Positions 14,722-52,005 of a DNA stretch of 64,000 nucleotides are shown one piece after another (the first letter of the stretch is position 1; each line of letters opens with the position of its first letter). This DNA is from Candidatus Woesearchaeota archaeon (GTDB taxonomy: Archaea; Nanobdellota; Nanobdellia; Woesearchaeales; SM23-78): assembly GCA_016930415.1 (NCBI GenBank), contig JAFGGS010000022.1, positions 16,930 through 80,929 on the forward strand, in the 5' to 3' direction. Both the position numbers and the translations under genes were made by a program. Under the pieces are notes generated by a model that was not told the DNA's origin, ran no database searches, and worked only from the letters and a program-made list of their open reading frames with translations.

Positions 14722-15453
14722 ATGAAACTTAAGAATAAGGTTGCACTAATTACAGGGGCTAGCAGAGGCATCGGGAGAGCGACTGCCTTGCTGTTTGCTA
14801 AAGAAGGTGCAAATATTATTGTTAATTATTTTAAAGCAGAAAACGAAGCCAATTCTGTTGTTCAAGATATTAAAAAGATGGGTGCTGACGCAATCACAAT
14901 TAAGTGTGATGTTTCCAAAGAGAATGAAGTCAAACAAATGGTAGATAAGGCAATTAAAAAATTTGGTAAAATAGATATTCTCGTTAATAATGCAGGTATA
15001 GTTTTTGACGTGCCATTTAAAGACAGGACTGTTGAACATTGGAAAAGAACTTTAGATGTTAATCTTATAGGTGCGTTTATTTGTGCTAAACATGTTACTT
15101 CGCACATGAAAAAAGGGCATATTGTTAATATTGCCTCAACTAATGGAATTAATGCTTGCAGTCCTGAATCTATGGATTATGATGCTTCAAAGGCAGGATT
15201 AATTAGCTTGACTAAAACCCTCGCACAGGCATTAGCACCAAATGTTATGGTAAATTGTGTAGCGCCTGGCTGGGTGGATACGGATATAAATAAAGATTTA
15301 CCAAAAGATTATGTGAAGTCAGAAACACAAAATATTTTATTGAAAAGATTTGGCAAACCTGAAGAAATTGCAAAGACAGTCTTGTTCTTAGTATCAGATG
15401 ATGCAAGTTTTATAACTGGAACAACAGTTGTGGTTGCTGGCGGATATCAATAA
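14722..15453 (+). CDS. fabG: SDR family oxidoreductase, FabG (3-oxoacyl-ACP reductase)-like; low-GC, probably horizontally acquired
   Basis: TGASRGIGRA cofactor motif, NNAG, catalytic Y-x3-K (YDASKAG); gene is about 36% GC versus about 52% for surroundings. Confidence 0.8.
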   Translation: MKLKNKVALITGASRGIGRATALLFAKEGANIIVNYFKAENEANSVVQDIKKMGADAITIKCDVSKENEVKQMVDKAIKKFGKIDILVNNAGIVFDVPFKDRTVEHWKRTLDVNLIGAFICAKHVTSHMKKGHIVNIASTNGINACSPESMDYDASKAGLISLTKTLAQALAPNVMVNCVAPGWVDTDINKDLPKDYVKSETQNILLKRFGKPEEIAKTVLFLVSDDASFITGTTVVVAGGYQ

Positions 15454-15667
15454 CACTACGTTATTTTCTGGATTTATCCTCAATAGAAACCGTAGTTTTT
15501 ATAAGTGCCAGCCGCCTATTAAGGGCTAAAGCCTTAAAATCGGAGGGTCAGAAGTTTAGGGGCTTTTTACGCTGCCGGGGTTAAGCCGTTAGGAGGCTGT
15601 TAATTTTATCTTCTTCTGACGTCATCCTAGAATTCTAGCAGGGGGTGCTCTCTTTATCTATTTTTAT

Positions 15668-16246
15668 CTATTCGTTGAGTCTCCTGAATAAGTCTGTTGG
15701 GAGATAAAGCCTTACATTTCCTGGTTTCCATCGGAACCATCCCTTGACAGTGTCCTTCCTGTAGGGCGCGACTAGTGTGCCGTTGTAGGATTCCATCTGG
15801 AGAAACACTCTGCATGGCGGGATCGCTCTGCTCTTGTATCCGATCTCTTCTCTCAGTTCAAAGAAGATCTTTTCATAATCAGTGCTTCCTATGCATGATT
15901 CCAGGTGCCCTGTGCGTGTGGTTATGGATCCTATTGCTCGTTCCTCTGTGCTGTCTAGCAGGGAGAAGAGCCCTCTGAAGTTTCTTTCGCATAATATCTG
16001 GTATGTTGTTGTCTTGTTTGGATTGACGCTCACGTCTTCAATCACGCTTGATGGTTCCTTGGTCTCTTCTATGGGCAAGAAAGTTATGATTTCTTCTGTT
16101 CTCTCCGACAACTCTCTTTCCAGCTTCCCAAGGTTAATCCATTTCAGGCCGTTGTTTTCCATCGGGTCAAGAAATCCCTTTCGCTTTATATGCTTTGCTT
16201 TTCCAGAGTGGTGAATCGCGCTCGCGTCTTTGCGTTGAAACAACAA
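15668..16246 (-). CDS. hypothetical protein
   Basis: 192-aa ORF, no recognisable motif. Confidence 0.35.
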   Translation of the reverse strand: MLFQRKDASAIHHSGKAKHIKRKGFLDPMENNGLKWINLGKLERELSERTEEIITFLPIEETKEPSSVIEDVSVNPNKTTTYQILCERNFRGLFSLLDSTEERAIGSITTRTGHLESCIGSTDYEKIFFELREEIGYKSRAIPPCRVFLQMESYNGTLVAPYRKDTVKGWFRWKPGNVRLYLPTDLFRRLNE

Positions 16247-21395: not shown

Positions 21396-22550
21396 TTAAT
21401 GCTTATTTATAAAGCTAACTGTTTTAAAGATGGTTATCGGAGCCTGCTGCTGGCTGGCATACGCCTTTAAGGCCTCTATGGCAAAGCCTGTCGTGAGCTC
21501 TTCTGAACCGTATGAAAATGAATCGAACGGCCCGGCTATGAACAAGGCGCCTCTTGGCCACGAACCGTCTTCTCCTTGAGTCTTGAGGAGCCTAATCACC
21601 CCGCCCCTGACTTCTTCACCTGAATATCCCAGGTTAATGAGCGTATCCACTGCGAGCGCTGTTTCGAGCTCGTTTCCAAAAGACCCGTCGTGCATCCTGG
21701 AAGACAGGGTCTGGCCTATTATTATCTCCTTGCTGCTGTCAAGACAGCTCACATTGCTCCTTATGGCCCTTGATAGCATGTAGTTCCTGGCCAGCCTATT
21801 CGGATAGAATTGGGAGCAGTTCTCATTGTTCTTGACTGCTCGGTTGATGAAATCGCATACCTCAGGATACTGGTCTCCTAGGTATAAGAGCACGTTCACG
21901 TTCACGATGCAGTCTACTATGCCGTATTCTCCTTCACGATCGTCTTCTTTTATCCACGTGTAGAACAATCCTTCCGGATTCCTGTTATCAAGGAATGCTC
22001 TAGTATTGTCCTTGAGTTTCATCCCGTTCATCTTCAAAGCGAGTGAGGCAGCAGCGGTGTCGTCAAGGTCAGGCACTATATCCTGGGTGTTCCTGCTGGA
22101 GTAATACCTCCATATCCCTCCCGGCATCTTCTCGCCTGATAAGAACTCAAGTCCTTTCCTTGTAATGTCCGCGACTTGAGCATTATCATTGAGGTTCCTT
22201 ACTGAGTATAGTATGAGCGCTGTCGCGAATGGCGAGCTGTCAAAAGCGCATTCACTCATCTCCTCATATTGTTCGCTTCTGCACCTGTAAGTCCTGAACT
22301 CCCCGTAGTCCAGTTGCGACTCGTATAGGAACGCAATCGCCTTTTCCAGGGAGCGGTTTATCATGATGCTCTCTTCAGAGAGGTGTTTCTGGCTGTAGAT
22401 TAAGCTGCTCCCCTGACGATTCAGTCTGCTTATCAAGAAGATGCTGGCTGAGATGAGAAGCGTCAAGATGAGAATGGAGAAAAGGATTATCCTTGTGTTC
22501 CAGGATTGTATGCTGTTCCTGTTATCTTGACTTTTCCGTCTTCTTCGCAT
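21396..22550 (-). CDS. membrane-anchored prenyltransferase/class II terpene-cyclase-like alpha/alpha-toroid repeat protein with DxDDTA motif
   Basis: N-terminal TM, VPDLDDTAAASLALK (DxDDTA as in squalene-hopene cyclase), repeated GxWxxx motifs (GGIWRYY, DGSWPRG, DGSFGNE). Confidence 0.45.
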   Translation of the reverse strand: MRRRRKSQDNRNSIQSWNTRIILFSILILTLLISASIFLISRLNRQGSSLIYSQKHLSEESIMINRSLEKAIAFLYESQLDYGEFRTYRCRSEQYEEMSECAFDSSPFATALILYSVRNLNDNAQVADITRKGLEFLSGEKMPGGIWRYYSSRNTQDIVPDLDDTAAASLALKMNGMKLKDNTRAFLDNRNPEGLFYTWIKEDDREGEYGIVDCIVNVNVLLYLGDQYPEVCDFINRAVKNNENCSQFYPNRLARNYMLSRAIRSNVSCLDSSKEIIIGQTLSSRMHDGSFGNELETALAVDTLINLGYSGEEVRGGVIRLLKTQGEDGSWPRGALFIAGPFDSFSYGSEELTTGFAIEALKAYASQQQAPITIFKTVSFINKH

Positions 22551-25122
22551 CGAGAGAACTCTCCGAGTTCTTTGTGTCAGAGGCTTTGCCTCTGAGCACG
22601 TCGAGCTCCTTCTTGAATCTCAGGATCGTCTTTAGCACGTGCTCAGGCTGGGTCTGGAGGATGTCTGCGAGCTTGACGAGCACGTCTGTTCCCTTATACT
22701 CCTCATCTGAGACCAGCTTGAGCTCCTTCAGCTGTTCTGGAGTCGCGCCACCTTTTCCAAGCTTTCTTGCCTTCTTCCACTTTAAGAAAAGCTCCTCGAC
22801 CCTTGAAGGCAGCCTTCTTTCATCGACGCCTAGCGCTGTGCTTGCCTCCTTCAGGATGTCCTTCTCTTTAGATAACGTTTTCTCTGCTGCTTCTCCTGCA
22901 GTGAACTCGATCCTCACGATGCCGTCCTGGATTTTGGTGGACTTGAGCAGCTTTATGATCTTGGTCTCTCCTGTCAGGTTGAGGTGAGTGCCTCCGCAGG
23001 CCTCGACGTCAAGCCCCTCGATCGACACGACCCGTATCTCTTTGCCCGGCACAGCTCCCCCTTGGTAGAGCACGAAGCCGTACTTAGCCTCTGCGATGCT
23101 CCTTGGCATGAAGCTCTTGTAGATCGGAAGGTTCATCTCGATCACCTTGTTCGCCAAGTCTTCTATCTTCCTCATCTCAGCGTCAGATAACGCGTCGTAG
23201 TGCGTGATGTCCAGCCTTGCCTTCTCAAGGCTCTTAGAGGCTCCTGCCTGCCAGATGTGATTGCCGAGCACCTGCCTTGCGACGCCGTTTATGATATGGG
23301 CTGCGGTGTGGTGCTGTGTGAGCTGGAGCCTTATGCTCGAGTCAACCCTGCCTTGCACCTTGTCGCCTGCCTTGAACTTGGGCTTGTCCTTCATGACATG
23401 GATGATGACTGCGCCTTGCTTGAATATCTCGACTACCTCGTCCCCAGATATCTTTCCCTTGTCATGGAGCTGCCCTCCGCTCGTGGGATAGAAGACTGTC
23501 CTGTCAAGCACGACTAGCTTGTCATCTATGATCTTGAGTACTTGGGCTTCGAAGTCCAGGTAGTCGTAGGCGTCGAAGTAGAGCGCCTTAGTGGCTGGGA
23601 TCCCTTTCAGGTCGAGCTCTTTCTCCTTCCTGGTCTGGGTCTTCTGCTCTCCCTTCTCATGCCTCTCTGCGACTAGCGCGAAGAAGTTGTCAGGTATCTC
23701 GACGCGCATTCCTAGCTTCTTGGCCTCTTCCTTTACAGTCTCAGGGCTCACTCCCTGGCTGTCGTATAGCTCTATCAGCTTCTTGGTAGTGACTTCCTTG
23801 CCGCTCTTGAGCAATTGGTCCACGACCTGGGCTCCCTTCTTCTTGGTCTGGTAATATTTCTGCTTCTCGTTCTCAAGGACCTTCTTAACGTCCGAGAGGT
23901 TGTTCTTCAGGTCCGGGTAGATCGGTTCTAGGTAATCTGCGTGCCACTCGCACACATCCACCAAGTCTATCTTCCATCCGTACGACTCTATGAAGTCCAT
24001 AGCCCTCCTGAATATGACCCTCAAGTTGTAATATCCGCCGACGTTCGAAGGAAGGCCTCCGTCGCTTATCGAGAAAAGGAGCGCTCTTGCGTGCTCTGCG
24101 ACTGAGTAGAGCGCTGTCATGGGCTGTATCTTGGCCTTGAGCTCCTCCACAGGGACTTTGACCTCTGACGCGATCTCACTCCACACCGCATCGACGTCTT
24201 CCACTTCGTCGAAGTTGAGCTTTGTCGCGAGGGGCGCGAACTTCTTGTAGAGCGCGTGGTCGAACTCGACGCCGAGCTTATCCTTGAGCTTGTCGATCAC
24301 AGTCGGGAAGGCGGCGTCGTAGACTGTCGGTGCTCCCTGGCTGAACCATGCGACCCGCTCCATCCCAAGACCCATGTCGAGCACCTTGATCCTGAGTTCC
24401 TTATCTCCATGGTCTGAGTGCTCGAACATCATGTAGACCTGGTTGAACAGCTCGACTCCCCTGCTGAAGAACTCCATGCAAGGCCCGAAGTTCCCTCCGC
24501 CAGCCCAGGAGTCCTCGTGAAGCGTGAGCTCCTCCTTCGGGACGCCCACTTCCTTTGTTATGTACTCATAAATATCCTTGAACGCCTGCTCCTGGCTCCA
24601 CTCCTTCGGCTCGACGAACATGTGCTGTCCTATCATCACGAATCCAGTGCAGTGGCTTCCAGTCACTCCAACGTTGTCTATATCCCCAAATCTTAAGCAG
24701 AACTGGGGAATCACGAGCTTCCTTGCCGGCGGATCGCACTCTCCGCTTATGACATAGGGCTGGAACGCTGCGATGCTCGCGTTGGTGAAGTAAGTCGTCG
24801 GGTTCCAGCGGGCGATAACAGGATACCTGGTAACTGCGTGGTAGCCTCTCTTCTCAAAGAAGCCTTTGAACCCAAGCCAGACCCCGACAAAGTCGATTTT
24901 CCTCTTTACAGGAGGCTTGTCGAATATGTCGACTCTGCCTCTGCAAGCCGCGTCTCCGCACGCATCCTGGCCTTTGTGGACAGTCCAGTAGTAAAGGCCG
25001 CACTTGGGGCACTTCTTTCTCACAAACCCCTCTGCCTTGAGTACGCTCGTCGCGTAGTACTTGTCAGGCTCAAGCGCGGCCATCGCCTTGAACTTCTTCT
25101 TGAGCTCCTTGTCTGAAAGCAT
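22522..25122 (-). CDS. alaS: alanine--tRNA ligase (archaeal type)
   Basis: 866 aa; HTAAHI and CGGTH editing-domain motifs, archaeal AlaRS N-terminal zinc-binding region. Confidence 0.9.
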   Translation of the reverse strand: MLSDKELKKKFKAMAALEPDKYYATSVLKAEGFVRKKCPKCGLYYWTVHKGQDACGDAACRGRVDIFDKPPVKRKIDFVGVWLGFKGFFEKRGYHAVTRYPVIARWNPTTYFTNASIAAFQPYVISGECDPPARKLVIPQFCLRFGDIDNVGVTGSHCTGFVMIGQHMFVEPKEWSQEQAFKDIYEYITKEVGVPKEELTLHEDSWAGGGNFGPCMEFFSRGVELFNQVYMMFEHSDHGDKELRIKVLDMGLGMERVAWFSQGAPTVYDAAFPTVIDKLKDKLGVEFDHALYKKFAPLATKLNFDEVEDVDAVWSEIASEVKVPVEELKAKIQPMTALYSVAEHARALLFSISDGGLPSNVGGYYNLRVIFRRAMDFIESYGWKIDLVDVCEWHADYLEPIYPDLKNNLSDVKKVLENEKQKYYQTKKKGAQVVDQLLKSGKEVTTKKLIELYDSQGVSPETVKEEAKKLGMRVEIPDNFFALVAERHEKGEQKTQTRKEKELDLKGIPATKALYFDAYDYLDFEAQVLKIIDDKLVVLDRTVFYPTSGGQLHDKGKISGDEVVEIFKQGAVIIHVMKDKPKFKAGDKVQGRVDSSIRLQLTQHHTAAHIINGVARQVLGNHIWQAGASKSLEKARLDITHYDALSDAEMRKIEDLANKVIEMNLPIYKSFMPRSIAEAKYGFVLYQGGAVPGKEIRVVSIEGLDVEACGGTHLNLTGETKIIKLLKSTKIQDGIVRIEFTAGEAAEKTLSKEKDILKEASTALGVDERRLPSRVEELFLKWKKARKLGKGGATPEQLKELKLVSDEEYKGTDVLVKLADILQTQPEHVLKTILRFKKELDVLRGKASDTKNSESSLDAKKTEKSR

Positions 25123-27729: not shown

Positions 27730-29997
27730 TCAGTACAAGGGTATATTTCCTGTGCCTTCTCCGACCAGCTCAACGTTCTTGACCTTTGAGAGGTCGCCAA
27801 TCTTGTTGATGCGTAGCAGTCCTTGGCTCTTGGTGTAGAGCAGGTCTTCGATGTAGAGGCTCCTCTCGACTGCTGGTCTGTAGTAGTACTTGCCGCCCAA
27901 TGACGCGGAGTGGTCTACGATGCCTCGCAGCTCGATGTCGTCCTTGGTTATCTTGAAGACCATCGCGCCGTTGTAGCCTTGCACTGCTTCTGGCTTCCTT
28001 GGCATGATCTCGTCTCCTTCCCATCCCCAGTCATCGTAGGTCTGGCTGTAGGCTGGTATCACGAGCAGCTCTTTCTCTTTTGAGAAGAGGAATGCCTTGT
28101 GCTCGTACTCTGCAGTGCTCTGAGCGTATCGCTCGTCCGTCGTGAACTTGGCGATTTCCTTCGGCTTCTCGACGTCTGTCACGTCGAAGAGGCTTATCTT
28201 GAGTCCGCGCGTCCTTCCAGTCTCGCTCGCGTCCCTGCCTATGCCTATTATCGTGTTCGCATCGTACGGGTGCAGGTACCTGCTAAAGCCCGGTATCTTG
28301 AGCTTGCCAAGCATCCTCGGGTTCTTGGCGTCGCTTAGGTCGATTACGAAGAACGGGTCGACCTGCCTGAACGTGACCATGTAAAGCCTCTCGCCTATGA
28401 ACCTGGTGGAGTAGATCTGCTCTCCCTCTGCAAGGCCCTTGAGCGATCCTAGCACCTTGAGGCTCTTGTCCATCGTGAAGACGTTGTTCGTTGACTCTGT
28501 CATCTTCTCATCGCTTGTCGCGGCGAACCTTGACCATCTCTGGCTGATAGTCGTCGCTATCCTGAAGACGTCTCCTTCCTCGTCCATGCTGAACTGGTTC
28601 ATGATATGGCCAGGCACCTTGCCATTGGCCTCGACCTCGATGTCTCCGTTGTTCACGCTTATCCTGTTAACGATTGTGTACTCGAAATGCTCGTACTCGT
28701 CAAGCTTCTTCTTCAGGAGAGCTTCTGCCTCATCCCTTAAGTCCTCCTGCTCTTCCTGGGTCATGAAGTTCATGTAGTCGTACGCGATCTGCATCACCTT
28801 TGACCTCTTCTCTGCTTTTGAGAGCAGGTCCTCATCAGCGGCTTTTATCTTCTTGATGAGATCCTTGTCGCTGTCGGTGAGCCTTGGCGTCATCATCTCC
28901 AGTATGATGTCCTGCTCTATCTCCCACTCGTTGATGTACTCAGTGTACGTGATGTAGATGTTCTTATCGCTCATGTAAAGGTTCTGTCCGTTCTCGACAG
29001 CAATGCTCTTGGAGTTCACGCTTGCCTCCAGGTCTGCCAGGTTTATCGCGTGGATGTTCGCCAGCGTCACTCCGTTGTACGGGATGTTGAAGTAGTGGAT
29101 GTCACGCACAGGCATGGCTTTTATGGTGGCTCCGTCCATCATCACGGGCGTCGGGTAGATCCTTCTGTACTCGGGGTTCAGGTTGGTTATCAGGTAGGCG
29201 TAGCCCTCTGTCATCCTAGCCTCTGAGTAGTATCCTTCGAACTTGTAGTCCTTGACGAGCTTTGGCTCGGCCTTGTCGCTCGTGTCGTAGATTCTGACAA
29301 AGGTCATGCCTTGCCTTGGCCTAAAGTCCATCTCCTTGAAGAAGTCGTTGTCATAGAAGTTGCCGATGACCGCTAGCTTGTCTCCTTTGACAAAGAGGCC
29401 TGTCGGTCGGCTCTTGAACTTGACTTGTGAGATTACCTCTGCGTCCTCTCCAGGATAAGCCTTGATTATGAACAAGGAGTTTCCTGATATGGTGTATACG
29501 TAGTCCCCGTCCGTCTTGATGATGTCTGCCTCGTCGACCGTAGACACTTGGTTGTTCGTCTCTGAGTAGTCGATGTCAGCTCCGTTCTGCGCTGACTCTC
29601 CAGCAGTCACCTTGACGGCAGTAGGCGCTGCCATCGGGGCGGATCCTGCAGAGTCCAAGGCCAGGCTTTCGACCATGACTCCTCTCGCCATGTCTGCGCC
29701 GCCGAAGTATCCTCCACCGCTGACGCTGTTGGACTTGACGAACGCCAAGTACTCCGAGTCAGACTCGAAGTTGCTGGTCTCTATCTTCTCCACAGGGTCA
29801 AATGACGCCTGGGAATGGGTCGCCGCGCTCCCATCCACGTGCTCGATTATAGGCGGGATGACTCCTCCTTCGCACGCTGATAGCAGCATCCCTGCAGCCA
29901 CTAGGAACATAAGCAATATTATTGTAGTTATTATCCCTTCCTTCTTCATTCCCTTCTTCATATGGATCACCTTGCCTGTCTTATTGATCATACGCAA
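27730..29997 (-). CDS. large secreted lipoprotein (755 aa), hypothetical
   Basis: Signal peptide with lipobox-like LLSAC, coiled-coil segment, long extracellular region. Confidence 0.5.
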   Translation of the reverse strand: MRMINKTGKVIHMKKGMKKEGIITTIILLMFLVAAGMLLSACEGGVIPPIIEHVDGSAATHSQASFDPVEKIETSNFESDSEYLAFVKSNSVSGGGYFGGADMARGVMVESLALDSAGSAPMAAPTAVKVTAGESAQNGADIDYSETNNQVSTVDEADIIKTDGDYVYTISGNSLFIIKAYPGEDAEVISQVKFKSRPTGLFVKGDKLAVIGNFYDNDFFKEMDFRPRQGMTFVRIYDTSDKAEPKLVKDYKFEGYYSEARMTEGYAYLITNLNPEYRRIYPTPVMMDGATIKAMPVRDIHYFNIPYNGVTLANIHAINLADLEASVNSKSIAVENGQNLYMSDKNIYITYTEYINEWEIEQDIILEMMTPRLTDSDKDLIKKIKAADEDLLSKAEKRSKVMQIAYDYMNFMTQEEQEDLRDEAEALLKKKLDEYEHFEYTIVNRISVNNGDIEVEANGKVPGHIMNQFSMDEEGDVFRIATTISQRWSRFAATSDEKMTESTNNVFTMDKSLKVLGSLKGLAEGEQIYSTRFIGERLYMVTFRQVDPFFVIDLSDAKNPRMLGKLKIPGFSRYLHPYDANTIIGIGRDASETGRTRGLKISLFDVTDVEKPKEIAKFTTDERYAQSTAEYEHKAFLFSKEKELLVIPAYSQTYDDWGWEGDEIMPRKPEAVQGYNGAMVFKITKDDIELRGIVDHSASLGGKYYYRPAVERSLYIEDLLYTKSQGLLRINKIGDLSKVKNVELVGEGTGNIPLY

Positions 29998-32556: not shown

Positions 32557-33240
32557 ATGGCCAAGAAGTCTAAGGGTAACATTCTAGTCATATGCGCTCA
32601 TTCCGACGACCAGGTGATAGGGGCTGGCGGAGCCTTGGCGAAGTACGCAAAGGAGGGCTACGACATCCACACCCTGATCATGTCCTTCGGGGAGAGCGTC
32701 AAGCCCCATTTCAAGCGCGAGGTCATCTCTAAGATCAGGGTGAAAGAGTCTCAGAGGGCCAACAAGATCTTGGGCGGAAAAGGTTTGACATTCCTAGGAT
32801 TGAAGGAGCTCAAGTTCGAGGAGGACTTTGCCAGGAGGAACATAAGCGAGAACTTCAAGTCTCTGATTCTCAAGATGAACCCTGTCAAGATATTCACCCA
32901 CTCCAACGACGACGCCCACCCAGACCACCGCGCCACCCTCAGGATTGTCCTCAAGGCCTACAAGCGCCTCAGGCTCACGTGCGAGCTCTACACCTTCGAA
33001 GTATGGCACCTCTTCAATATAAAAAAGAGGAACAAGCCAAAGCTAGTCGTGGACACCACAGAGACTTTCAGCAAGAAGATCGCCGCCCTGAAGGCGTTCA
33101 AGAGCCAGATAAAGCTCTCAAGCTTCTACAACTACTTCGTCCTCAACAACTTCTTCTACTTCCTGATATACATCAAGGACTTCATGAACGGCCTGAAATA
33201 CAAGTCTAGGTTCGCAGAAGTTTTTTATAAGATAAGGTGA
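32557..33240 (+). CDS. PIG-L/LmbE-family N-acetylglucosaminyl deacetylase
   Basis: ILVICAHSDDQVIGAGG and HSNDDAHPDHRAT motifs of the LmbE/PIG-L family. Confidence 0.75.
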   Translation: MAKKSKGNILVICAHSDDQVIGAGGALAKYAKEGYDIHTLIMSFGESVKPHFKREVISKIRVKESQRANKILGGKGLTFLGLKELKFEEDFARRNISENFKSLILKMNPVKIFTHSNDDAHPDHRATLRIVLKAYKRLRLTCELYTFEVWHLFNIKKRNKPKLVVDTTETFSKKIAALKAFKSQIKLSSFYNYFVLNNFFYFLIYIKDFMNGLKYKSRFAEVFYKIR

Positions 33241-34472
33241 TCTTAGGATATAAGGATTATGCAGTTATCGGTGGTCTCATGGCTGAGGATCAGAAGGTAG
33301 GAAAGGAAGCTGGAAAAGAAGCCGGCAAGAGGAAGATATTGATAGCGACAGACAACTTCCTGCCAAGGTGGGACGGGATATCCCGCTTCCTCGCAGAGAT
33401 GATCCCGAGGCTCAAGGACAGGTATGACTTGACTATAATCGCGCCTGACTTCGGCTACACTGCCGCCGAGAAAGCTCAGAGCTTCAGGTTCCTGAAGATG
33501 CCGACCTCACGTATCAAGATAGGCGACTTCCCTCTCCCAAGGCCAAATAAGAAAATCATCCGTCAAGAAGTCGCAAAGGCTGACCTTGTCTTCTCGCAGA
33601 CGATCGGCCCAGTAGGGCTAGCAGCGATAAACGCGGCGAAGAAGGAGAAAAAGAAAGTGATCTCCTACATCCACTCAGTAGAGTGGGAGCTGATCACCCA
33701 GTCATTAGGGATTGAGTTCTTCAAGAACCAGGCTTACTCTATATCAAGAAGCCTCGTTCGGAACGTCTACAAGAAAGTCGACGTCCTCCTGATGCCTGCC
33801 CAAAGCGTCTCAGAAGTCTTCTCATGGCACCAGATAGACGCACCTAAGAGGATAGTCCACTTAGGGGTTGATACCAAGAAGTTCACCCCGCCAGCGAGGA
33901 AGGACGATGCGAAGGCCTTGGTGGGGATTGCAAAGGACATCTTCGTCATAGGATTCCACGGGCGCATAGGGAGAGAGAAAGATCTCTTGACCCTTCTTAG
34001 GGCTTACATCCAGGTGAAGAAGCACCATCCCAAGTCAATACTGCTCATAGTAGGCGACGGCGTCGAGAGCGTGAAGAAGAAGCTTAAGAGCGTTCGTGGC
34101 GTAGTAGTGACTGGGAGCAAACACAACGTGGTGCCCTACATCCAAGCCATGGACGTGTTCTGCCTGACCAGCCTGACAGAGACCACGAGCCTGTCGGTCC
34201 TGGAAGCAATGGCCTGCGGCGTGCCGGTCATAACGAACAAGGTAGGGTTCGTGAAGGACTACGTAAAAGACGGCAAGAACGGGCTCTTCTTCAACGCGAA
34301 AAACAGCTACGACCTCTCAAAGCATATCCAACGAGTGATGAAGGACGAGGACCTCAGGAAGAGGCTTAGCCTGACCGGCCGTAAGTTCGTGGAGAAATAC
34401 TTCGACTGGGACCTCACAGCCAAAGAGATCATCAAGGCCATAGATGACACGATCGAGGGCAAGGAAGAATAG
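33237..34472 (+). CDS. GT4 glycosyltransferase (PIG-A/BshA-like), start overlaps the LmbE gene by 4 nt
   Basis: KILIATDNFLPRWDGIS N-terminus, EGLVILEAMACGVPVI, 411 aa. Confidence 0.75.
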   Translation: MILGYKDYAVIGGLMAEDQKVGKEAGKEAGKRKILIATDNFLPRWDGISRFLAEMIPRLKDRYDLTIIAPDFGYTAAEKAQSFRFLKMPTSRIKIGDFPLPRPNKKIIRQEVAKADLVFSQTIGPVGLAAINAAKKEKKKVISYIHSVEWELITQSLGIEFFKNQAYSISRSLVRNVYKKVDVLLMPAQSVSEVFSWHQIDAPKRIVHLGVDTKKFTPPARKDDAKALVGIAKDIFVIGFHGRIGREKDLLTLLRAYIQVKKHHPKSILLIVGDGVESVKKKLKSVRGVVVTGSKHNVVPYIQAMDVFCLTSLTETTSLSVLEAMACGVPVITNKVGFVKDYVKDGKNGLFFNAKNSYDLSKHIQRVMKDEDLRKRLSLTGRKFVEKYFDWDLTAKEIIKAIDDTIEGKEE

Positions 34473-34516: not shown

Positions 34517-37117
34517 CTAGCCAAGCGTGATGATTACGTCGTTGGTTGTAGCCTGTATCCTTGCGGCCCAGGCCCCGTTGGAGTTCCTCACATACTGGGT
34601 CATGGTGGATGAGTTGTCTGCCCCGCTGCGAGAGACCCTGATGACCCCTATCCTCTTGTCGTTGATCGGGCTCGCCACGTTATAAAAGTTTATGTCACCC
34701 ACTGCGCCATCAGATGTCATGTTGCCGCCGATGCCAAGATAAGCCGTGCTCGACTCTGTTGAACTGACTATATCCAGAGTTGGCGTTCCTGTGAAATAAG
34801 TGCCTGGCGAAGTCGTCCCGATACCGATGCTAGTCCCATTCTGGTAGATTGCTGAGTTGTTGAGCACGCCTGTGGCTTGCCAGAGCGGCAGGTATCCTGC
34901 GGTGCTTTCTCCGCTCGTGAAGTTTACGTTTCCTTTTGTGTTCCAGGTGGCTGCGTTTGCTATCTGGCTGTCGGAAAGCTGGCCAGTGATGTTAGCCGCT
35001 GCGTGCTGATGGGTGTTTGTCAGGTTGCCGAGGTCTGTGAGGTTGAGTGTGCTGTGTTGGTGTGTGTTTGCAAAGTTGTTTGGGTCTGTGATGTTGGCTG
35101 CTGCGTGGAGGTGTGTGTTTGTTTCGTCTGCGTTTCCGCACAGGCCGTTGTCTGCCGTGCATACCCTGCTGCCGTTGGCCTCGTAGATGAGACCGCTAGC
35201 GTTTATTCCTCCATGAAGTCGCATGTTGAGCGGGACTGCAACGGCGCCGATTGTTATTTGATTTTCTGAGGTTGAGACTGCGCTTCTTCCTATAACCACT
35301 GAATCCGAAGAAGTGGCATTTGCATTGGTGCCTATTGCTATTGCGTAATTGGCTGCAGTGCGCGCATAGTATCCCACTGCTGTCGCGTAGTTGCCGCTTG
35401 CAGTGGAATTGGCATAATATCCTAATGCTATACCATATCCGCTTGCTGAATTGGCAGTTTGCCCTAGAGCCAGGGATGCACTAGCTGTTGCCGCTGAGTT
35501 GAACCCCATAGCGATTCCTGAATTGCTGGATATTGAGTTGCTTCCTATGGCGATTCCGTTGTTGGTGCTGACTTGTGATGCTGTTCCTATTGCTATTGCA
35601 TTCTGGGCGCTGGTTGTTGTGGACGATCTTCCTACTGCTATGCTGTCTGCATTGCTGACATTTGCCAGATAACCTATTGCTGTTGCGTATGTTGATGCGG
35701 CAATCGAAGACCTTCCAATGGCGATGCCGTAATCTCCGCTCGCATTGGTGTATAATCCTATGGCTATGGCGTTATCTCCTTCTGCTGTTGAAGCATATCC
35801 GCTTATAACGGTAGCTCCCACACCAGATGCTTTTGAGTTCATCCCTATGGCTGTGCTATACCTGTTGCTCTCTGCGTCATACCCTATGGCGACGCTCTCT
35901 GCGTATGAGTATGAACTATCTCCTATGGCGATCCCCCTGTCTACTCCTCCCTTGTCTACCTTCGCGTTGAGTCCTATCGCTATGCTATACGTGGCATTGC
36001 TAGAACTACCTACTCCTATGGCGATTACGCTTGTCGTCTCAGCTTTTGAGCCTTGTCCTATCGCGATGCCGTAATTTCCCGTGGCGTTTGCGCTCCTGCC
36101 AATCGCTACAGAGTCGCTTCCTGAAGCGACAGTGCTTCTCGTTAAAGCTATGCTGTCCTGCCCCAACGCTTTCGCCTGGTAGCCTATTGCTGTCGCATAT
36201 GCGCCTGTTGCGCTGGCACTATTACCGATGAAGAATCCTGTTGGCATGCTTATGTTTCCTGCTACTGTGATTGTGCTTCCGCTTTGGCTCATTATGCTGT
36301 TTTCTAGCAGGCTGTTGCTTGTGAATACTGGGATGTAGTTAGCTGTTCCTGTGCTTGACACGTTTCCGTTTCCGCCTGCTGCTGCGCACAGGCCGTTCTC
36401 TGAGGTGCATACCCTGCTGCCGTTGGCTTCGTAGATTAGGCCGCTTGCGTTTATTCCTCCATGAAGTCGCATGTTGAGCGGATCCGTCGTGCCCCCTATG
36501 ACTATGTTCGTCCCTTCTTGTATTATCGCGCTGTCTCCGAGTGTGTCTCCTGCGGTCCATAGCGCTACGTAGTTGGTGCTTCCTGCGCCTGAGATGTTGG
36601 CTCCTCCAAGGGCTGTCGGGCATCCTGTCCCGTTTGCTAGGCAGATGTTTTGTCCTCCGACCGTGGCTGCTGGTCCTGTCACGTAGAGGTCTCCGTATAT
36701 ATACGCGTTCCTGCTCACGTTCAGGTCTACGCTGCTCGTGCCTACGTATACCATGCTTCCTGCGCCTTGCAGTAGGTATAGTCCTGTCGGCGAGTTAAGG
36801 TAGAGGTTGTTGTTCTCTGCGTAGATCTGGCTTTGCGAGCCTGATGGCTGGGTCCCGTTGCCTAGTATGTCTAAGTAGCTTGAGTAGAAGAGGTTGCTTA
36901 TCTTGATCTGGTTGGTTACGTTGATGCTGCCGTTCAGCTCGCTGCTCCCTTGCTGTTCGATGTAGAGCGTGTCGTGGCCTGGGTCGTTCGCTGCAAGTGC
37001 GCTCGTCGCGACAATCGATAGCGCGCTGGCTATAGCTAGAAGGAGGATCGCTCCTTTCAGGGCTGCCTTCAGGGCGGTTTCATCATGTCTGGTCTTATGT
37101 TCTCCTTTCATCTTCAC
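34517..37117 (-). CDS. secreted surface protein with Hep_Hag/YadA-head-like repeats (adhesin-like), 866 aa
   Basis: Signal peptide; dozens of degenerate 14-mer repeats (..SIAIG.., ..ATAIGY.., ..AIAIGT..); internally duplicated PLNMRLHGGINASGLIYEANGSRVCT segment; NTHQH repeats. Confidence 0.55.
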   Translation of the reverse strand: MKMKGEHKTRHDETALKAALKGAILLLAIASALSIVATSALAANDPGHDTLYIEQQGSSELNGSINVTNQIKISNLFYSSYLDILGNGTQPSGSQSQIYAENNNLYLNSPTGLYLLQGAGSMVYVGTSSVDLNVSRNAYIYGDLYVTGPAATVGGQNICLANGTGCPTALGGANISGAGSTNYVALWTAGDTLGDSAIIQEGTNIVIGGTTDPLNMRLHGGINASGLIYEANGSRVCTSENGLCAAAGGNGNVSSTGTANYIPVFTSNSLLENSIMSQSGSTITVAGNISMPTGFFIGNSASATGAYATAIGYQAKALGQDSIALTRSTVASGSDSVAIGRSANATGNYGIAIGQGSKAETTSVIAIGVGSSSNATYSIAIGLNAKVDKGGVDRGIAIGDSSYSYAESVAIGYDAESNRYSTAIGMNSKASGVGATVISGYASTAEGDNAIAIGLYTNASGDYGIAIGRSSIAASTYATAIGYLANVSNADSIAVGRSSTTTSAQNAIAIGTASQVSTNNGIAIGSNSISSNSGIAMGFNSAATASASLALGQTANSASGYGIALGYYANSTASGNYATAVGYYARTAANYAIAIGTNANATSSDSVVIGRSAVSTSENQITIGAVAVPLNMRLHGGINASGLIYEANGSRVCTADNGLCGNADETNTHLHAAANITDPNNFANTHQHSTLNLTDLGNLTNTHQHAAANITGQLSDSQIANAATWNTKGNVNFTSGESTAGYLPLWQATGVLNNSAIYQNGTSIGIGTTSPGTYFTGTPTLDIVSSTESSTAYLGIGGNMTSDGAVGDINFYNVASPINDKRIGVIRVSRSGADNSSTMTQYVRNSNGAWAARIQATTNDVIITLG

Positions 37118-38868
37118 TTGTTTATGTCCTTCCTGTAGGGGATAACGTTCCCTCTTATGTGGAGGTCTCCGCGGCCTTGGTCTGCCCAGGCTAGCACTAT
37201 CCCTTTCTTGTTCTTGAGCGTGAAGCTTCCTGGACTAGGGTCTATGTTGGCGTTCTCCTCGTAGAGCTTGCCTGTCATGTGTAGGTCTCCAGTCTCGCTG
37301 TCGAACCAGATGGTCGTCTTGACGTTGCCGTACTCATCTTCGTGGTTGATCGCGTAGTCGCCTCCGCGCGGGCTAAACGCGCTTCCCTCGATAACTTCTC
37401 CTCTTATCAATAGGTTCCCGATCGGGGTTATCCTCGCGGTCTGTTCCCGGTCGCTCGTCGTGATGAATATGGCTTGGTCTTGGAAGTATTCCTTGTTGTC
37501 CAGGCATTCGAGGGGTCTCTCGTTTGGGTTTGGCGCGCTGCATGGGTCTGTTAGCGCTTGCGTGTAGTTGCTCTGGGCTGGGGTTGGCTCTGTGTTTTGT
37601 GGCAAAGTCTGGTTTCCTTCTTCGGGAGCTTCCTCGCTTATGATTATCTGAAACTCGTTGCTCGTGATCATCGTGTCGCCGTCTGTCGCGTATACTCTTG
37701 CAGTCTCCTCTGTCTCCTCGGCTGAGTATATCTTCAGCTTGCTTCCGAGCGTAGATGAGGCTATGGTTTCAAGTCCGCTCACATCGTAGTGCAGCTGGCT
37801 GTCATCTGGGTCTGTGAAGTATCTGCTCATGTCGACTTCTTTCTCTTCACCTGGCCTCGCGTAGACGTCGCTTATCTCGAGCGCTTGCCTTGGCGGCTGG
37901 TTCTCCTTTGGTCTGGTCGCTTTGATCTCTGTGATCGTCACTTGCGTGCCGTCGCTCGGCTCTATCACGAGCACTGGCCTGTTTGTCTCGTTCATCTCGC
38001 AGGTCTCTGTGCATAGGTCTGTGAAGGATAATCCTGTGCTGTTGATGATGTGCCTGGCTGTCTCCTGCGGTTCTTCTTGGATTAGGTTGATTGTCTTCTC
38101 GGTCTCGTTCGTGGCGTTGATCACTTCGAACCTTACTTCCAGCCTGATTATGTCTTCTCCTGTAGCTATTATGCCTACGACTATGTATTCTCCTGCGCTG
38201 GTCGGGGCGTAGCTGCCCGTCTCGATCAGCGTGGCTTCTTCTCCTTGGTGGACGTAGACTGTCATGTTATCGTCTTCTTCTGGCGTCGTGGTTATCTGCA
38301 CTTCTTCTCCAAGGCTGTATGTCTTCTTGTCTGTTGTGAGGGTGTATTCTCGGGCTTGTTGTCCTGAACCAGTCACTTCTCCGACTAATAGTTCTCCTTC
38401 TGCAGTCTTGAGTGTGAACCTTGCTCCTTCTCCTGTGATCGAGCCGCTTATCTTAAGTCCCGTCACCTTATCCAGTTCGATAACTCTCTCTGTGAGCGCA
38501 GTGATGGTCTCTTGCGTGGCTAGTGTCTCTTCTGCTTGCTTGACTGCGAAGCCTGTTATGTCTGCGTCGTTCCCGAAGAGGCCTGCCGTGCCTGCGATTA
38601 TTATCATTGCAGCGAGCATTATTGCCGCTATGTTCATGGCGTGGATCCCATTCTCGCGCTTCGCTGACTTGCGTTGCTCTGCCATCTGGCGGTCTATGTG
38701 GCTTAGCAGTTCTTCCTTTGTCTTGCCGCACAGCTTCTCCTCTATGATTATCTTGTGTTCGAGCGTTTGTATCTCTCCTGTGGCCAGTCTTTCCTGCATC
38801 TCATTCGTGAACCTGACTACTTCGTCCCTGGTCTCTTGCAGTCTTTGGATCTGTTCGTCAGGTTTCAT
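37114..38868 (-). CDS. single-pass membrane protein: cytoplasmic N-terminal domain, one TM, Thr/Glu-rich extracytoplasmic domain (anti-sigma-like architecture)
   Basis: About 75-aa N-terminal soluble region, TM IAAIMLAAMIIIAGTAGLFG, about 480-aa extracellular part; 4-nt overlaps with genes on both sides. Confidence 0.45.
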   Translation of the reverse strand: MKPDEQIQRLQETRDEVVRFTNEMQERLATGEIQTLEHKIIIEEKLCGKTKEELLSHIDRQMAEQRKSAKRENGIHAMNIAAIMLAAMIIIAGTAGLFGNDADITGFAVKQAEETLATQETITALTERVIELDKVTGLKISGSITGEGARFTLKTAEGELLVGEVTGSGQQAREYTLTTDKKTYSLGEEVQITTTPEEDDNMTVYVHQGEEATLIETGSYAPTSAGEYIVVGIIATGEDIIRLEVRFEVINATNETEKTINLIQEEPQETARHIINSTGLSFTDLCTETCEMNETNRPVLVIEPSDGTQVTITEIKATRPKENQPPRQALEISDVYARPGEEKEVDMSRYFTDPDDSQLHYDVSGLETIASSTLGSKLKIYSAEETEETARVYATDGDTMITSNEFQIIISEEAPEEGNQTLPQNTEPTPAQSNYTQALTDPCSAPNPNERPLECLDNKEYFQDQAIFITTSDREQTARITPIGNLLIRGEVIEGSAFSPRGGDYAINHEDEYGNVKTTIWFDSETGDLHMTGKLYEENANIDPSPGSFTLKNKKGIVLAWADQGRGDLHIRGNVIPYRKDINK

Positions 38869-39047
38869 CTTATCCGTAGCCTCCTGGCTGTCTCTATTGT
38901 GTCTTCTGCTTCCTTGATCTTTCGTATAGCATTTTTTTCGAAGTGAGAAACAGCTGCCTGGCTTATCTTGAGTCTCTTGCTTACTTCGATCTGGGTGAGG
39001 CTTTGCTTTCTTAGTTCCAGTACCTTGATTTCTTTCTCAGTAAGCAT
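38865..39047 (-). CDS. small HTH DNA-binding protein, sigma-70 region-4/LuxR-GerE-like
   Basis: 60 aa; LTQIEVSKRLKISQAAVSHFEKNAIRKIK is a classical r4-type helix-turn-helix. Confidence 0.5.
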   Translation of the reverse strand: MLTEKEIKVLELRKQSLTQIEVSKRLKISQAAVSHFEKNAIRKIKEAEDTIETARRLRIR

Positions 39048-39251
39048 TGTATAATCTTTCTAAGTTATAAAACTTATCTTGATTTTATTTAAATATTTCG
39101 CTTTATCTTCAAACAATGAAATAATAACATAATTCTAATAAGTTATAAAATTTGATGTGATTATATATAAATGTTGTGGAAAAGAAAAATGAGAAAACAA
39201 GAACCTGCGAAAGCATGGCCAAGAAACATAATAAAGAAAGAAGCGTTAACT

Positions 39252-49548: not shown

Positions 49549-50208
49549 TCAGAATCCGCTCAGCGTCTTCTGCTTGCTTTCTGCTTTCTTCGCCGCCGTC
49601 TTCCAAGTCCCCCAGCTTTTCCTGAAGAAGTCGTACTTGTCGTACTTGTCTTTCACGAACTGGGCCGTGACTGGGTCTGCGGGGTAACCTGATCCGAAGT
49701 TGACGTTGTGCTTCTTCTTGAGTTCCTCGATCGCGTGGTCTCGTGTGACCTTTGCAAGGATGCTCGCAGCGCCGACTATGAGATACTTGTAGTCTGCTTT
49801 GTGCTCTACGACTAGCTTCGGCTTGTAGGAAAGCTTCTGCCTAAGATAGTCAGTATATGCCTTTGGATTCGCGCTTGGGCAGTCGACGAACACTTTCTCG
49901 ACGCCATTCTTCTGCTGGTTGTTGATTAGCTTGGCCCCTACGTCTGCCTCAAGCCAGTTGAGGTTCGTCGTCTCGCTCTCGACCGCAGAGTCTATGTCTG
50001 CGGGCCCAACCGCTATTATTTCGTACTTGCAGATCCTCTTGATCTGGCCTATCATGCGCTCCCTGTTAGCGGGGGTTATGAGCTTTGAGTCCTTTACCCC
50101 TATCTTCTCAAGCTCCGGCAGGTCTTTCTCGTCTATCACTGCTATAGCCATGACTATTGGGCCTATCACCGGCCCCCGGCCTGCCTCGTCTATGCCTGCT
50201 ATTATCAT
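49549..50208 (-). CDS. rnhB: ribonuclease HII
   Basis: MIIAGIDEAGRGPVIGPIVMA N-terminal catalytic motif. Confidence 0.85.
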   Translation of the reverse strand: MIIAGIDEAGRGPVIGPIVMAIAVIDEKDLPELEKIGVKDSKLITPANRERMIGQIKRICKYEIIAVGPADIDSAVESETTNLNWLEADVGAKLINNQQKNGVEKVFVDCPSANPKAYTDYLRQKLSYKPKLVVEHKADYKYLIVGAASILAKVTRDHAIEELKKKHNVNFGSGYPADPVTAQFVKDKYDKYDFFRKSWGTWKTAAKKAESKQKTLSGF

Positions 50209-50331
50209 GATACAAGAATAAGGCGCGTTGTTATTTAAATCTTGCTTCTGAATACGTTCTTTGGTTTATTTGTTACTTTCAAGTGGTCTTTGACAGAAAT
50301 TCTTATAAATTAAACACGATTCTCTGAGATT

Positions 50332-51090
50332 ATGGGGAATCCGTTTGAGGAGACTAAAAAAAGACTGCGTTTAGCAGAAGAGGAAGCTAATCGTTATAGA
50401 GATTTATCTCTCTGTGTTATCCTTGCTGGATCAGTCGCTTACTCTCCTAATCACGCAGTTACTGAATCCTCAGATTTAGATTTGATTGTTGTATCTGCTG
50501 ATGTAAAAGGTATGCTGTCACTTCTTATTGAGGACTCTCAAGAATTATCTGCTCTTAAAAACAGGTTCTTTGAGGGTTACTGTCTAAAACGTGAGAGCCA
50601 AGGGATCCCTGTGAGCATACATCTCCTTAGTGAAGATGCCTTTGATATTATTAGTAAATGTTTTGTATCTAATATGCGCGTCTACAGGCCAAAACCAAAA
50701 CCTGAGGCCTATTCCTTACATGGATTTGATGGCGCAGTGTATCCTTATTTCATAAAAAATGTGTCCTTGCCGGATTTAAGGGGTGTGCGCACTATAGTTC
50801 CCATATCCTTCATATATGATGATAGATATCATCTAGGAATCCATAGAGACAAGCTTCTTAGCAATCCGAAGATTTTATGCGAATCCGAACAACATGCCTC
50901 TGCTCGTATTGACAAATTATGGGCTGTTGTTGTGGAAAACTTATATGATGAAGCACATAGGCTATATGGTCATCTGGATTTGGGCAGGATGAACGTACTT
51001 AATGCGTTATCGAGGTCTCATAAGATGACGCCAGCTGTCATTGCAGAAATTACTGGCAAGACCTCGTTCTACTTATCTCGTCTCAGATAA
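50332..51090 (+). CDS. Pol-beta-superfamily nucleotidyltransferase of unknown specificity (low GC)
   Basis: GSVAYSPNHAVTESSDLDLIVV = GS..(x)..DxD minimal NTase motif; about 40% GC. Confidence 0.55.
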   Translation: MGNPFEETKKRLRLAEEEANRYRDLSLCVILAGSVAYSPNHAVTESSDLDLIVVSADVKGMLSLLIEDSQELSALKNRFFEGYCLKRESQGIPVSIHLLSEDAFDIISKCFVSNMRVYRPKPKPEAYSLHGFDGAVYPYFIKNVSLPDLRGVRTIVPISFIYDDRYHLGIHRDKLLSNPKILCESEQHASARIDKLWAVVVENLYDEAHRLYGHLDLGRMNVLNALSRSHKMTPAVIAEITGKTSFYLSRLR

Positions 51091-51967
51091 TCTCTCTTCT
51101 GGATGATGAGGGATCGTACATGTCAAACATTATCACGGCAAGATTCTTGCTTTCCGGATTGTTGCCAGGGGAAAAACAGGTCGTGAATCCTATCTTCTCT
51201 TTGTATTTTCCGGATTTTTTCACAGTTTCGTGTATGTGGCCATGCAGGCTTATCTCTGGTATTTTTGTCTCTATTATTTGTCTTACGCCTTTGCTTCCGA
51301 CATGTTCCCTTGTGCTATTCAGGTCTAGGTTGCTGTTGTAGGGTGGTGCGTGTGTCATTAGGATTGTTTTCTTCATTCTCTTTTTTCTGAAGAGTCTCTC
51401 TAAGTCTTTCTCGATTGTATCTTTCCTGTTTTTGGTCTGTATTACCTTCTTTACTAGTTCTCCGTCTTTGCTACAGAATCCTTCTGTTATGAAGTAAGGC
51501 CTATATTCTTTCTCATCAATATATCGGCTGTCTAGTTTCTCCCAATCCTTGTAGATGAAGGGTGATAGCGGCACGAATGAGTATCCTATCAAGTCATAAT
51601 CCTTCGTGAGGGACGCGATCTTGTTGTGTACTTCTTTAAATCCGGCACTCTCGTTTCTTATGAGGAAACTCCTGTTATCCTTGAAATCATCGTTCCCCAT
51701 GATAAGGAATATCTTGACATCCTTCCTTGTTTTTTTGAAGGACTCCTTGGTTCTTTTTATTAAGGGTATTAGCTCGTTCTTGAGGAATGCTTTCTGAAGC
51801 TTTGGTGTCCTTCTTTCTTTATCTTTTGGAGTTATATCGCCTCCTATGATCACCGCGTCTGCTTGTTCTGAGAGTGCCTTCGCGAAAAGCTTCACATATT
51901 GACTTATGTTGCCATGAAGATCTGCAGTGTATATTATTTTGTAGCTCCTTTTTCCCTTGGATTCCAT
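51083..51967 (-). CDS. calcineurin-like metallophosphoesterase (low GC)
   Basis: DLHGN, GGDI, GNDD, HAPP, GHIHE motif series; converges on and overlaps the NTase gene by 8 nt. Confidence 0.7.
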   Translation of the reverse strand: MESKGKRSYKIIYTADLHGNISQYVKLFAKALSEQADAVIIGGDITPKDKERRTPKLQKAFLKNELIPLIKRTKESFKKTRKDVKIFLIMGNDDFKDNRSFLIRNESAGFKEVHNKIASLTKDYDLIGYSFVPLSPFIYKDWEKLDSRYIDEKEYRPYFITEGFCSKDGELVKKVIQTKNRKDTIEKDLERLFRKKRMKKTILMTHAPPYNSNLDLNSTREHVGSKGVRQIIETKIPEISLHGHIHETVKKSGKYKEKIGFTTCFSPGNNPESKNLAVIMFDMYDPSSSRREII

Positions 51968-52005
51968 TAAGAACTAGAAAGAATTTGGGATTATTTAAAT
52001 TTTAT

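Follow-up and report, generated by a model that had tools for sequence, protein, structure and literature searches.

We have found that a three-gene operon in DNA from a Candidatus Woesearchaeota archaeon (contig JAFGGS010000022.1) is a conserved cassette, in which a gene for a small DNA-binding protein is followed by genes for a single-pass membrane protein and a secreted fibre. The 64,000-nucleotide stretch that was analysed is referred to here as the window, and positions are counted from its first letter. We read the locus as a self-contained DPANN surface-fibre cassette, with the fibre docked on a stalk and the operon autoregulated by its first gene, and we give this reading a probability of about one half. 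If it is correct, gene 3 would encode a Sec-exported, anchorless and probably trimeric fibre built like a phage tail fibre, with a conserved N-terminal base and mosaic middle and distal modules, which here include a YadA-head β-roll block, and the distal modules most likely bind a partner cell or surface. The stalk encoded by gene 2, made of immunoglobulin (Ig)/cadherin-like domains, would present a strongly conserved C-terminal domain at some distance from the membrane, and this domain most likely holds the invariant N-terminus of the mature fibre. The product of gene 1 would bind repeated motifs at or just downstream of its own TATA box and thereby autoregulate the operon, the regulator and its operator having apparently been swapped together on several occasions. 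Attachment to other cells is believed to be the way of life of DPANN archaea, through contact molecules that are largely unknown. The cassette is a concrete and conserved candidate for such attachment, combining a fibre with an exchangeable tip and a dedicated stalk that belongs to a large family. It appears to be undescribed; a literature search that fell short of covering all journals turned up nothing relevant on this cassette or on YadA/Hep_Hag heads in archaea or DPANN.

A conserved three-gene cassette

The operon occupies the minus strand, as do all of the operon features given below, and consists of open reading frames at 38865-39047 (gene 1, 60 amino acids), 37114-38868 (gene 2, 584 amino acids) and 34517-37117 (gene 3, 866 amino acids). 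A preliminary description of this DNA had proposed three co-directional, translationally coupled genes at these positions, and this is what we find. The stop codon of gene 1 and the start codon of gene 2 overlap as ATGA at 38865-38868. The 4-nt overlap that the same description placed between genes 2 and 3, at 37114-37117, holds for one of two start codons. The junction reads caaGTGAagATGaaa, and with GTG 37117 as the start codon the two genes overlap as described, whereas the NCBI record (JW826_06455) starts gene 3 two codons later at ATG 37111, which yields 864 amino acids and instead leaves 2 nt from stop to start. Genes 2 and 3 are tightly coupled under either start. The source organism, Candidatus Woesearchaeota archaeon, is that given in record JW826_06460.

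All three genes are found in the same order at 23 distinct loci, which lie in Woesearchaeota and Nanoarchaeota genomes and on unclassified metagenome contigs, and among the loci examined we encountered no counter-example, that is, no locus with intact flanks that lacks one of the cassette genes. The three genes are thus neighbours elsewhere too, wherever the flanks are present. The contexts of nine gene 2 homologs each show a small gene, a membrane-protein gene and a gene for a large secreted protein in succession; when one genome of each species was scanned, four further Woesearchaeota or Nanoarchaeota genomes proved to contain the trio and one earlier locus was found again, and a metagenome scan added seven complete trios. 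A search in the reverse direction, starting from fibre-family proteins encoded on long contigs, found a small gene and a membrane-protein gene of ~590 codons directly upstream in three cases out of three. The coupling of the genes is also conserved: the 4-nt overlap of genes 1 and 2 recurs in 24 of 25 loci and that of genes 2 and 3 in 12 of 23, and in all but two of the remaining loci genes 2 and 3 are no more than 33 nt apart. The surroundings of the cassette are partly syntenic between genomes, with a gene for a TYW1-like radical SAM protein or a rotamase upstream, which argues for vertical inheritance. We note that a cassette fragment (L017, contig CAZCTY010000049.1) lies in a bin labelled Methanosarcinales; either it was wrongly binned or the cassette occurs beyond DPANN as well.

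An anchorless fibre and a candidate stalk

Gene 3 (34517-37117) encodes a secreted fibre of 866 amino acids (864 from ATG 37111) that has no membrane anchor. It contains a single, N-terminal hydrophobic segment and no C-terminal transmembrane (TM) segment, and a second hydrophobic segment is absent from every ortholog. A signal peptide (residues 1-42, ending ALA/A, with the stroke at the predicted cleavage site) and the family-defining N-terminal domain (residues 43-212, beginning ANDPGHDTLYIEQQGSSELNGSINVT) are encoded by 36482-37117. Further along is a YadA-head (Hep_Hag) block (residues 296-630; 35228-36232) of 18 repeats of ~14 residues, which are of the xIAIG type and lie between residues 308 and 596. 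The protein had been described beforehand as a giant one full of Hep_Hag/YadA-head-like repeats; that it is secreted and carries such repeats is upheld, but a protein of 866 amino acids is not giant. The repeats are genuine YadA-head/Hep_Hag repeats and not low-complexity sequence, as seen in the Pfam match to YadA_head (PF05658, E=3.8e-34, 10 matched stretches), in PDB sequence matches to YadA (1p9h), BoaA (3s6l) and BpaC (7o23), and in a Foldseek comparison of the block with the PDB, where the BpaC head (7o23; E=3.2e-11, 27% identity) ranked ahead of CbpF, BoaA, UspA1 and YadA. In the AlphaFold2 (AF2) model of the monomer, the confidence score (predicted local distance difference test, pLDDT) is 88-98 over most of residues 331-620 and 75-82 around residues 501-540, and there are no long helices past the signal peptide. 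A Pfam scan of the fibre at E<=0.1 returned YadA_head only, with no match to YadA_anchor (PF03895), to the stalk/neck domain (PF05662) or to Peptidase_S74 (PF13884). The fibre is probably trimeric, to judge solely from the YadA-head fold.

The YadA block is bracketed by two copies of a connector module, at residues 213-249 (PLNMRLHGGINASGLIYEANGSRVCTSENGLC; 36370-36481) and 629-665 (35122-35233), seen as a protein repeat at residues 213 and 629 and encoded by a 112-nt direct repeat (family D2) whose copies are 88% identical. This arrangement suggests that the block is a module that arose by insertion or duplication. The second connector is followed by three HxH motifs with an exact spacing of 17 residues (residues 669, 686 and 703; 35003-35113), which may be akin to the HxH motifs that bind metal in phage tail fibres, and by a C-terminal, presumably distal, domain (residues 720-866; 34520-34960) that ends in NDVIITLG. 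The fibre also contains three C-x6-C pairs and 27 N-glycosylation sequons, against 17.5±3.3 expected.

The N-terminus of the mature fibre is near-invariant across cassettes (NDPGHDTLYIEQQG). The sequence X-NDPGHD-x-LY, at residues 43-52 of the fibre in the window, is a feature common to the downstream genes of all related loci, and the motif NDPGHD(T/S)LY(I/V) occurs in ~45 members of the fibre family, almost always beginning one residue past the predicted site of cleavage. An N-terminal domain of ~150-200 amino acids follows the motif, and the remainder of the protein is a mosaic: total lengths range from 311 to 1240 amino acids, the C-termini fall into several classes (ending GHVIIDLS, NCIVFDTGGKICSGA or ALIVEGQ, for example), and YadA-head repeats are present in only some members. 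The YadA block is thus an accessory part of a wider family of archaeal fibres. Among the nearest matches outside the family are bacterial trimeric autotransporters and bacterial proteins annotated as tail fiber domain-containing, which combine PF13884 with PF05658.

Gene 2 (37114-38868) encodes a 584-amino-acid single-pass membrane protein whose N-terminus is probably cytoplasmic. A three-helix cytoplasmic domain (residues 1-72; 38653-38868) precedes the TM segment, which is the sole hydrophobic segment (residues 73-101; 38566-38652). The preliminary description was correct in its single TM segment, which is preceded by a helical N-terminus, but the Thr/Glu-rich extracellular domain that it recognised is in fact a series of about four β-sandwich, Ig/cadherin-like domains, at least one of which is cadherin/Ig-like (residues 111-410; 37639-38538), a low-complexity linker (residues 411-440; 37549-37638; disordered at residues 416-439 in the AF2 model) and a conserved domain of 140 amino acids. 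The last of these, at the C-terminus (residues 441-584; 37117-37548), is β-rich in a model with a mean pLDDT of 78, rising to 85-92 inside domains. These ~140 residues are the best-conserved part of the protein, with a mean column identity of 52%, an invariant cysteine pair (Cys443/Cys455) and the motifs C-x-PDPN-x-RP-x-EC, TPIGNLLI-x-G, TGDLHLRG and RGN-x-IPYR (alignments A1 and A3); the domain has neither a Pfam match nor a sequence relative in the PDB, and no Pfam or NCBIfam family matches the full 584-amino-acid protein or its 13 relatives. A word-indexed search of proteins yielded just 14 gene 2 relatives, a large undercount compared with an exhaustive profile search, by which the family is large, ~85 of the best 150 representatives (clusters at 50% identity) being full-length proteins of 500-700 amino acids.

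Conservation within the cassette is highest in two segments, namely the distal C-terminal domain of the gene 2 product and the first ~25 residues of the mature fibre. Across loci, pairwise identities of these two segments are correlated with r=0.70, compared with 0.35 for the Ig-domain region and the fibre N-terminal domain. It is the combination of an anchorless fibre, two top-conserved segments that co-vary and the frequent translational coupling of genes 2 and 3 that leads us to propose that the stalk docks the fibre. A homology between the two segments, suggested by a shared GDL(Y/H)xxG (family D5 at the DNA level), was considered and rejected, hhalign giving it a probability of 1.2%.

The gene 2 product might instead be no anchor at all but either a dedicated factor for assembly or folding of the fibre, such as phage tail fibres have, or an independent second adhesin, with the fibre released or attached to the S-layer or glycans in some other way. 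Co-occurrence and coupling of the genes agree just as well with an assembly factor. Ig/cadherin-like domains are typical of adhesins, and one genome encodes an extra, paralogous membrane protein that is not directly followed by a fibre gene. Assembly factors, however, are usually small and have no long stalk, whereas here the conserved domain stands at the far end of four β-sandwich domains and a linker, and the fibre, with no C-terminal TM segment and no further Pfam domain, has no other recognisable signal for attachment. We consider a gene 2 product of this non-anchoring kind unlikely. The paralog just mentioned is a protein of 525 amino acids, encoded downstream of the cassette in L014 (11429-13006), and its gene has no regulator gene of its own.

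A probable, exchangeable regulator and its promoter

Gene 1 (38865-39047) encodes a stand-alone helix-turn-helix (HTH) protein of 60 amino acids, of the Tfx/LuxR (sigma-70 region-4-like) type, and is the presumed autoregulator of the operon. It had been called a sigma-70 region-4/LuxR-type HTH protein, and this assignment stands, since Sigma70_r4 (PF04545; 29.7 bits against a cut-off of 24.1) and GerE (PF00196; 27.7 against 23.5) both pass their Pfam cut-offs. The protein matches only region 4, GerE and HTH_3 in Pfam, and only the last ~45 residues of sigma models. Its best NCBIfam match is the Tfx N-terminal HTH (TIGR00721, E=5.7e-12; residues 2-57 on model positions 7-62), and its sole PDB matches are to EnfR (8hno/8hnp; residues 7-58, E=6e-7). 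It thus most resembles the N-terminus of Tfx among archaeal regulators, with EnfR as its only relative in the PDB, but Tfx proteins (~140 amino acids) are defined by an acidic C-terminal domain that gene 1 lacks. Because that domain is absent, the protein, which stops at residue 60, scores 45.7 bits against a TIGR00721 cut-off of 60.25. Judged by these matches, the HTH protein of gene 1 resembles Tfx or GerE but is not a full Tfx protein. The Tfx family, which includes EnfR, comprises archaeal promoter-binding regulators with a sigma-70 region-4-like HTH (PMC10570040), and LuxR-type solos have been surveyed in archaea (PMC5413776). An HTH of this type is therefore not new to archaea, where regulators with a region-4-like HTH have been described before.

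The slot of gene 1 is filled by four classes of protein across loci: a Tfx/GerE-type HTH in 10, a Sigma70_r4_2-type HTH in 7, an AbrB/MazE-type protein in 7 and a weakly IclR/TrmB-like protein, possibly a winged helix, in 1. The class of regulator is independent of similarity between the membrane proteins, whose identity is 0.46 within a regulator class and 0.45 between classes and whose nearest neighbour belongs to another class in 10 of 19 loci, and we therefore infer that regulator and operator have been exchanged together, repeatedly. That gene 1 can be replaced by other DNA-binding folds, and that each recurrent class comes with its own repeated promoter motif, is the behaviour of an autoregulator and not of a sigma factor. 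Sequence comparison thus points to gene 1 as, most likely, a swappable autoregulator of the operon. The cassettes offer a clean natural example of regulator replacement, with four DNA-binding folds in one slot and an operator for each of the three recurrent ones, and they yield predicted binding sites for their Tfx-, r4_2- and AbrB-type archaeal regulators.

The promoter of the operon in the window contains two copies of a promoter/operator unit, which form a 47-nt direct repeat (family D6, 74% identity). The distal unit (39129-39175) has a TATA-like box, TTTATATATAA, followed by TTTTATAACTTA and then ATTAT, and matches ATAAC-N8-ATTAT at 39129-39146; the proximal unit (39051-39097) has a TATA box, TTTAAATA, at 39086-39093 and a candidate operator, ATAACTTAGAAAGATTAT, at 39051-39068, which stops 3 nt ahead of the ATG of gene 1. 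The 12-mer TTTTATAACTTA has two exact copies in the window, both in this promoter, and with one mismatch allowed there are three matches against 0.13 expected. A tandem duplication of the promoter unit is also seen in five Tfx-class loci (L004, L019, L023, L025 and L028).

In the upstream regions of all three recurrent classes, class-specific motifs adjoin a TATA box of the TTTAAATA type. The motif of the Tfx/GerE class, ATAAC-N7-10-VTTAT, lies ~12 nt downstream of the TATA box and occurs 4.6 times per kb upstream of its 10 loci against 0.06 elsewhere. For the 7 loci of the Sigma70_r4_2 class the motif is YTYAC-N3-RTVAG (9.5 per kb upstream against 0.02 elsewhere), found as TACTTAC-N3-GTAAGTA in arrays of 1-6 copies, and for the 7 loci of the AbrB/MazE class it is the palindrome TAGTACTA (5.5 per kb upstream against 0 elsewhere); no motif was defined for the single locus of the fourth class. 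Upstream of the other regulator classes, ATAAC-N7-10-VTTAT has zero matches, and the sole upstream match across classes is one TAGTACTA site before a Tfx-class locus (L025). The AbrB-class palindrome recurs in loci that were fetched after the motif had been defined, with four sites in L024 and one in L026. Because the motifs coincide with the TATA box or follow closely after it, in the usual archaeal start region, we infer negative autoregulation, with both the position of the transcription start and the binding of a repressor at these sites being predictions.

Other candidate patterns were set aside. An initial pattern for Tfx-class operators, TTATAACTTA with at most one mismatch, was too narrow and missed newly fetched loci, and the inverted-repeat pattern that replaced it was a post hoc choice. 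A wider regulon in the window was considered, but matches at 33250 and 50218 have no support, and pattern matches inside gene 2 at 37142-37158 and 37391-37407 (plus strand) derive from IRG(N/E)VI codons and are probably not regulatory.

A gene for a small region-4-type HTH protein that is coupled to a gene for an N-in single-pass membrane protein, with a surface-protein gene adjoining, is also what is seen in extracytoplasmic function (ECF) sigma/anti-sigma pairs such as SigI/RsgI and FecI/FecR, and the preliminary description had drawn this parallel. It is possible to imagine, by analogy with anti-sigma/RsgI-like or BlaR1/BlaI-like systems, that the gene 2 product senses the fibre or a host surface outside the cell and that its three-helix domain sequesters or releases the gene 1 product, switching the operon. 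Genes 1 and 2 would be made together, given their 4-nt overlap in nearly all loci; the membrane protein, with a cytoplasmic N-terminal domain and a large outside domain, has the topology of anti-sigma factors; the cytoplasmic domain, which belongs to one homologous family in 13 of 16 loci, still needs a role; and an autorepressor needs some means of relief. That one family of cytoplasmic domains, however, is paired with all four classes of regulator, which are unrelated DNA-binding folds. A Tfx-type HTH accompanies an unrelated N-terminal domain in L019, and the membrane protein of L032 (3787-5553) has only ~13 residues before its TM segment and no cytoplasmic domain, yet a Tfx-type HTH gene and the 4-nt overlap are retained. 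There is therefore no lock-and-key co-variation between regulator and cytoplasmic domain. Scans of six isolated cytoplasmic domains against Pfam and NCBIfam at E<=10 found no anti-sigma, protease or kinase family; a SHOCT-like match in one paralog (E=0.059) was below threshold, was matched by nothing in the other five and was not used. Gene 1 has a region-4-type HTH only, is just 60 amino acids long with no region 2, and is replaced by AbrB and other folds in orthologs. To our knowledge, archaea do not use sigma factors. The sigma/anti-sigma interpretation is accordingly not supported, and trans-membrane signalling of any of these kinds seems quite improbable, although genes 1 and 2 may still have a looser regulatory connection.

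Several points weigh against a docked and autoregulated fibre. Binding of the fibre to the gene 2 product is proposed on no direct evidence; the coefficient of 0.70 could merely reflect the adjacency of the two segments on the DNA, and the finding by hhalign that they are not homologous neither supports nor rules out docking. The AF2 monomer model has low confidence for the N- and C-terminal parts of the fibre, and a stalk that serves as an anchor beside an independent autoregulator leaves the conserved cytoplasmic domain of gene 2 with no role. As to the promoters, the sequences in which the Tfx and r4_2 patterns were counted are those that had served to define them, and the upstream regions are AT-rich; the controls for this are limited to the class specificity and the AbrB test loci. 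The motifs are absent from divergent Tfx-type loci (L029 and L032) and from a second AbrB subclass (L030 and L031). We nevertheless prefer the autoregulated surface-fibre cassette. We also put forward, tentatively, a bolder possibility, which is that the cassettes specify an unrecognised two-part attachment organelle of DPANN archaea, in which a stalk of Ig-like domains through the envelope holds a trimeric, phage-tail-fibre-like fibre docked by its invariant mature N-terminus, shuffling of distal modules (YadA heads and several tip classes) changes partner specificity, and repressor and operator form plug-and-play cartridges exchanged between lineages.

Genomic setting and comparison with known systems

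The neighbours of the operon in the window are housekeeping genes, with SMC immediately upstream and Rpo7, AlaRS (alanyl-tRNA synthetase) and PPDK farther off; on the 3' side are genes for a GT4 glycosyltransferase, which is convergent, and a PIG-L deacetylase. The neighbours of the cassette in the window include neither plasmid genes nor phage genes, be it for capsid, terminase, integrase or anything else. The alanyl-tRNA synthetase is encoded by a second open reading frame of 866 codons (22522-25122), and its equal length to gene 3 is coincidental. We note that the PIG-L deacetylase and GT4 glycosyltransferase genes (32557-34472, plus strand) point towards the sequon-rich fibre gene; that these enzymes glycosylate the fibre is pure conjecture. 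A 755-amino-acid protein with a full-length Beta_propel domain (PF09826, E=1e-146; 27730-29997, minus strand) may be a further exported or surface protein of this genome. Elsewhere in the window, a 116-nt Rfam match to tRNA (14513-14628, plus strand; 55 bits) is absent from the ARAGORN output and has a length that suggests an intron-containing archaeal tRNA, and two islands of low GC content, at 14001-16000 (0.415) and 50001-52000 (0.408), stand out from ~0.50 in the remainder.

Surface-associated genes also occur around the cassette in other genomes. In two of them (L007, 46-7002, and L020, 8886-16801) it adjoins genes for giant secreted proteins that contain DUF2341 and Laminin_G_3 domains, which hints at a larger surface-protein neighbourhood. 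An S_layer_C protein is encoded upstream of the cassette on the opposite strand in L018 (2707-5172, minus strand), and an exosortase/archaeosortase-like gene (PF09721) lies ~5 kb downstream of it in L019 (15864-17474, minus strand). In L011 the region 3' of the trio (5367-9048) encodes a secreted protein of 441 amino acids, a small MazE-like protein and a protein with a class III (pilin-type) signal peptide.

The cassette shares with antitoxin-style operons, whose first genes encode MazE/AbrB, HTH or RHH proteins, a small first DNA-binding gene of interchangeable fold, a 4-nt overlap and palindromic operators over the promoter. These are hallmarks of antitoxins, and the interchange of MazE/AbrB and HTH first genes and the apparently autoregulated promoters could be taken to mean that the cassette is a mobile or toxin-antitoxin-like module, or one derived from a virus, since fibre-like proteins are found in phages and there are weak PHROG matches of unknown function. 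We regard such an origin as very improbable. Genes 2 and 3 encode exported structural proteins and not toxins, PHROG contains no match to the membrane protein, and the housekeeping neighbours, with no phage genes among them, also tell against a mobile or viral element.

The surface-fibre cassette that we favour can also be compared with two groups of known proteins. Like bacterial tail fiber domain-containing proteins and phage tail fibres, gene 3 would give an anchorless, secreted YadA-head fibre that is a modular mosaic, with a conserved N-terminal end for attachment and a variable distal end. It differs from them in that no Peptidase_S74 chaperone domain was detected in it, in that the N-terminal domain with the NDPGHD motif is specific to the archaeal family, and in that its gene is part of a cell's own operon, next to the gene for its membrane partner, and not of a virus. 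With the trimeric autotransporter adhesins (YadA, BpaC, BoaA and UspA1) it shares 14-residue YadA/Hep_Hag repeats, which form a left-handed β-roll, and a presumed role in adhesion, and it can be pictured as a head of their type set on a frame like that of a phage tail fibre. By its domain content, however, the fibre falls outside the autotransporters as they are defined by anchor and stalk, for it has neither the β-barrel anchor (PF03895) that its bacterial matches carry nor the stalk/neck domain (PF05662), and only some of its orthologs contain the YadA block. It comes, moreover, from an archaeon with a single membrane, has a plain Sec signal peptide and would be anchored, if at all, by a separate membrane protein. 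The gene 2 product would then do in trans what the β-barrel anchor does for the bacterial proteins, and the cassette thus suggests how a cell with a single membrane can hold heads of the trimeric-autotransporter type without such a barrel.

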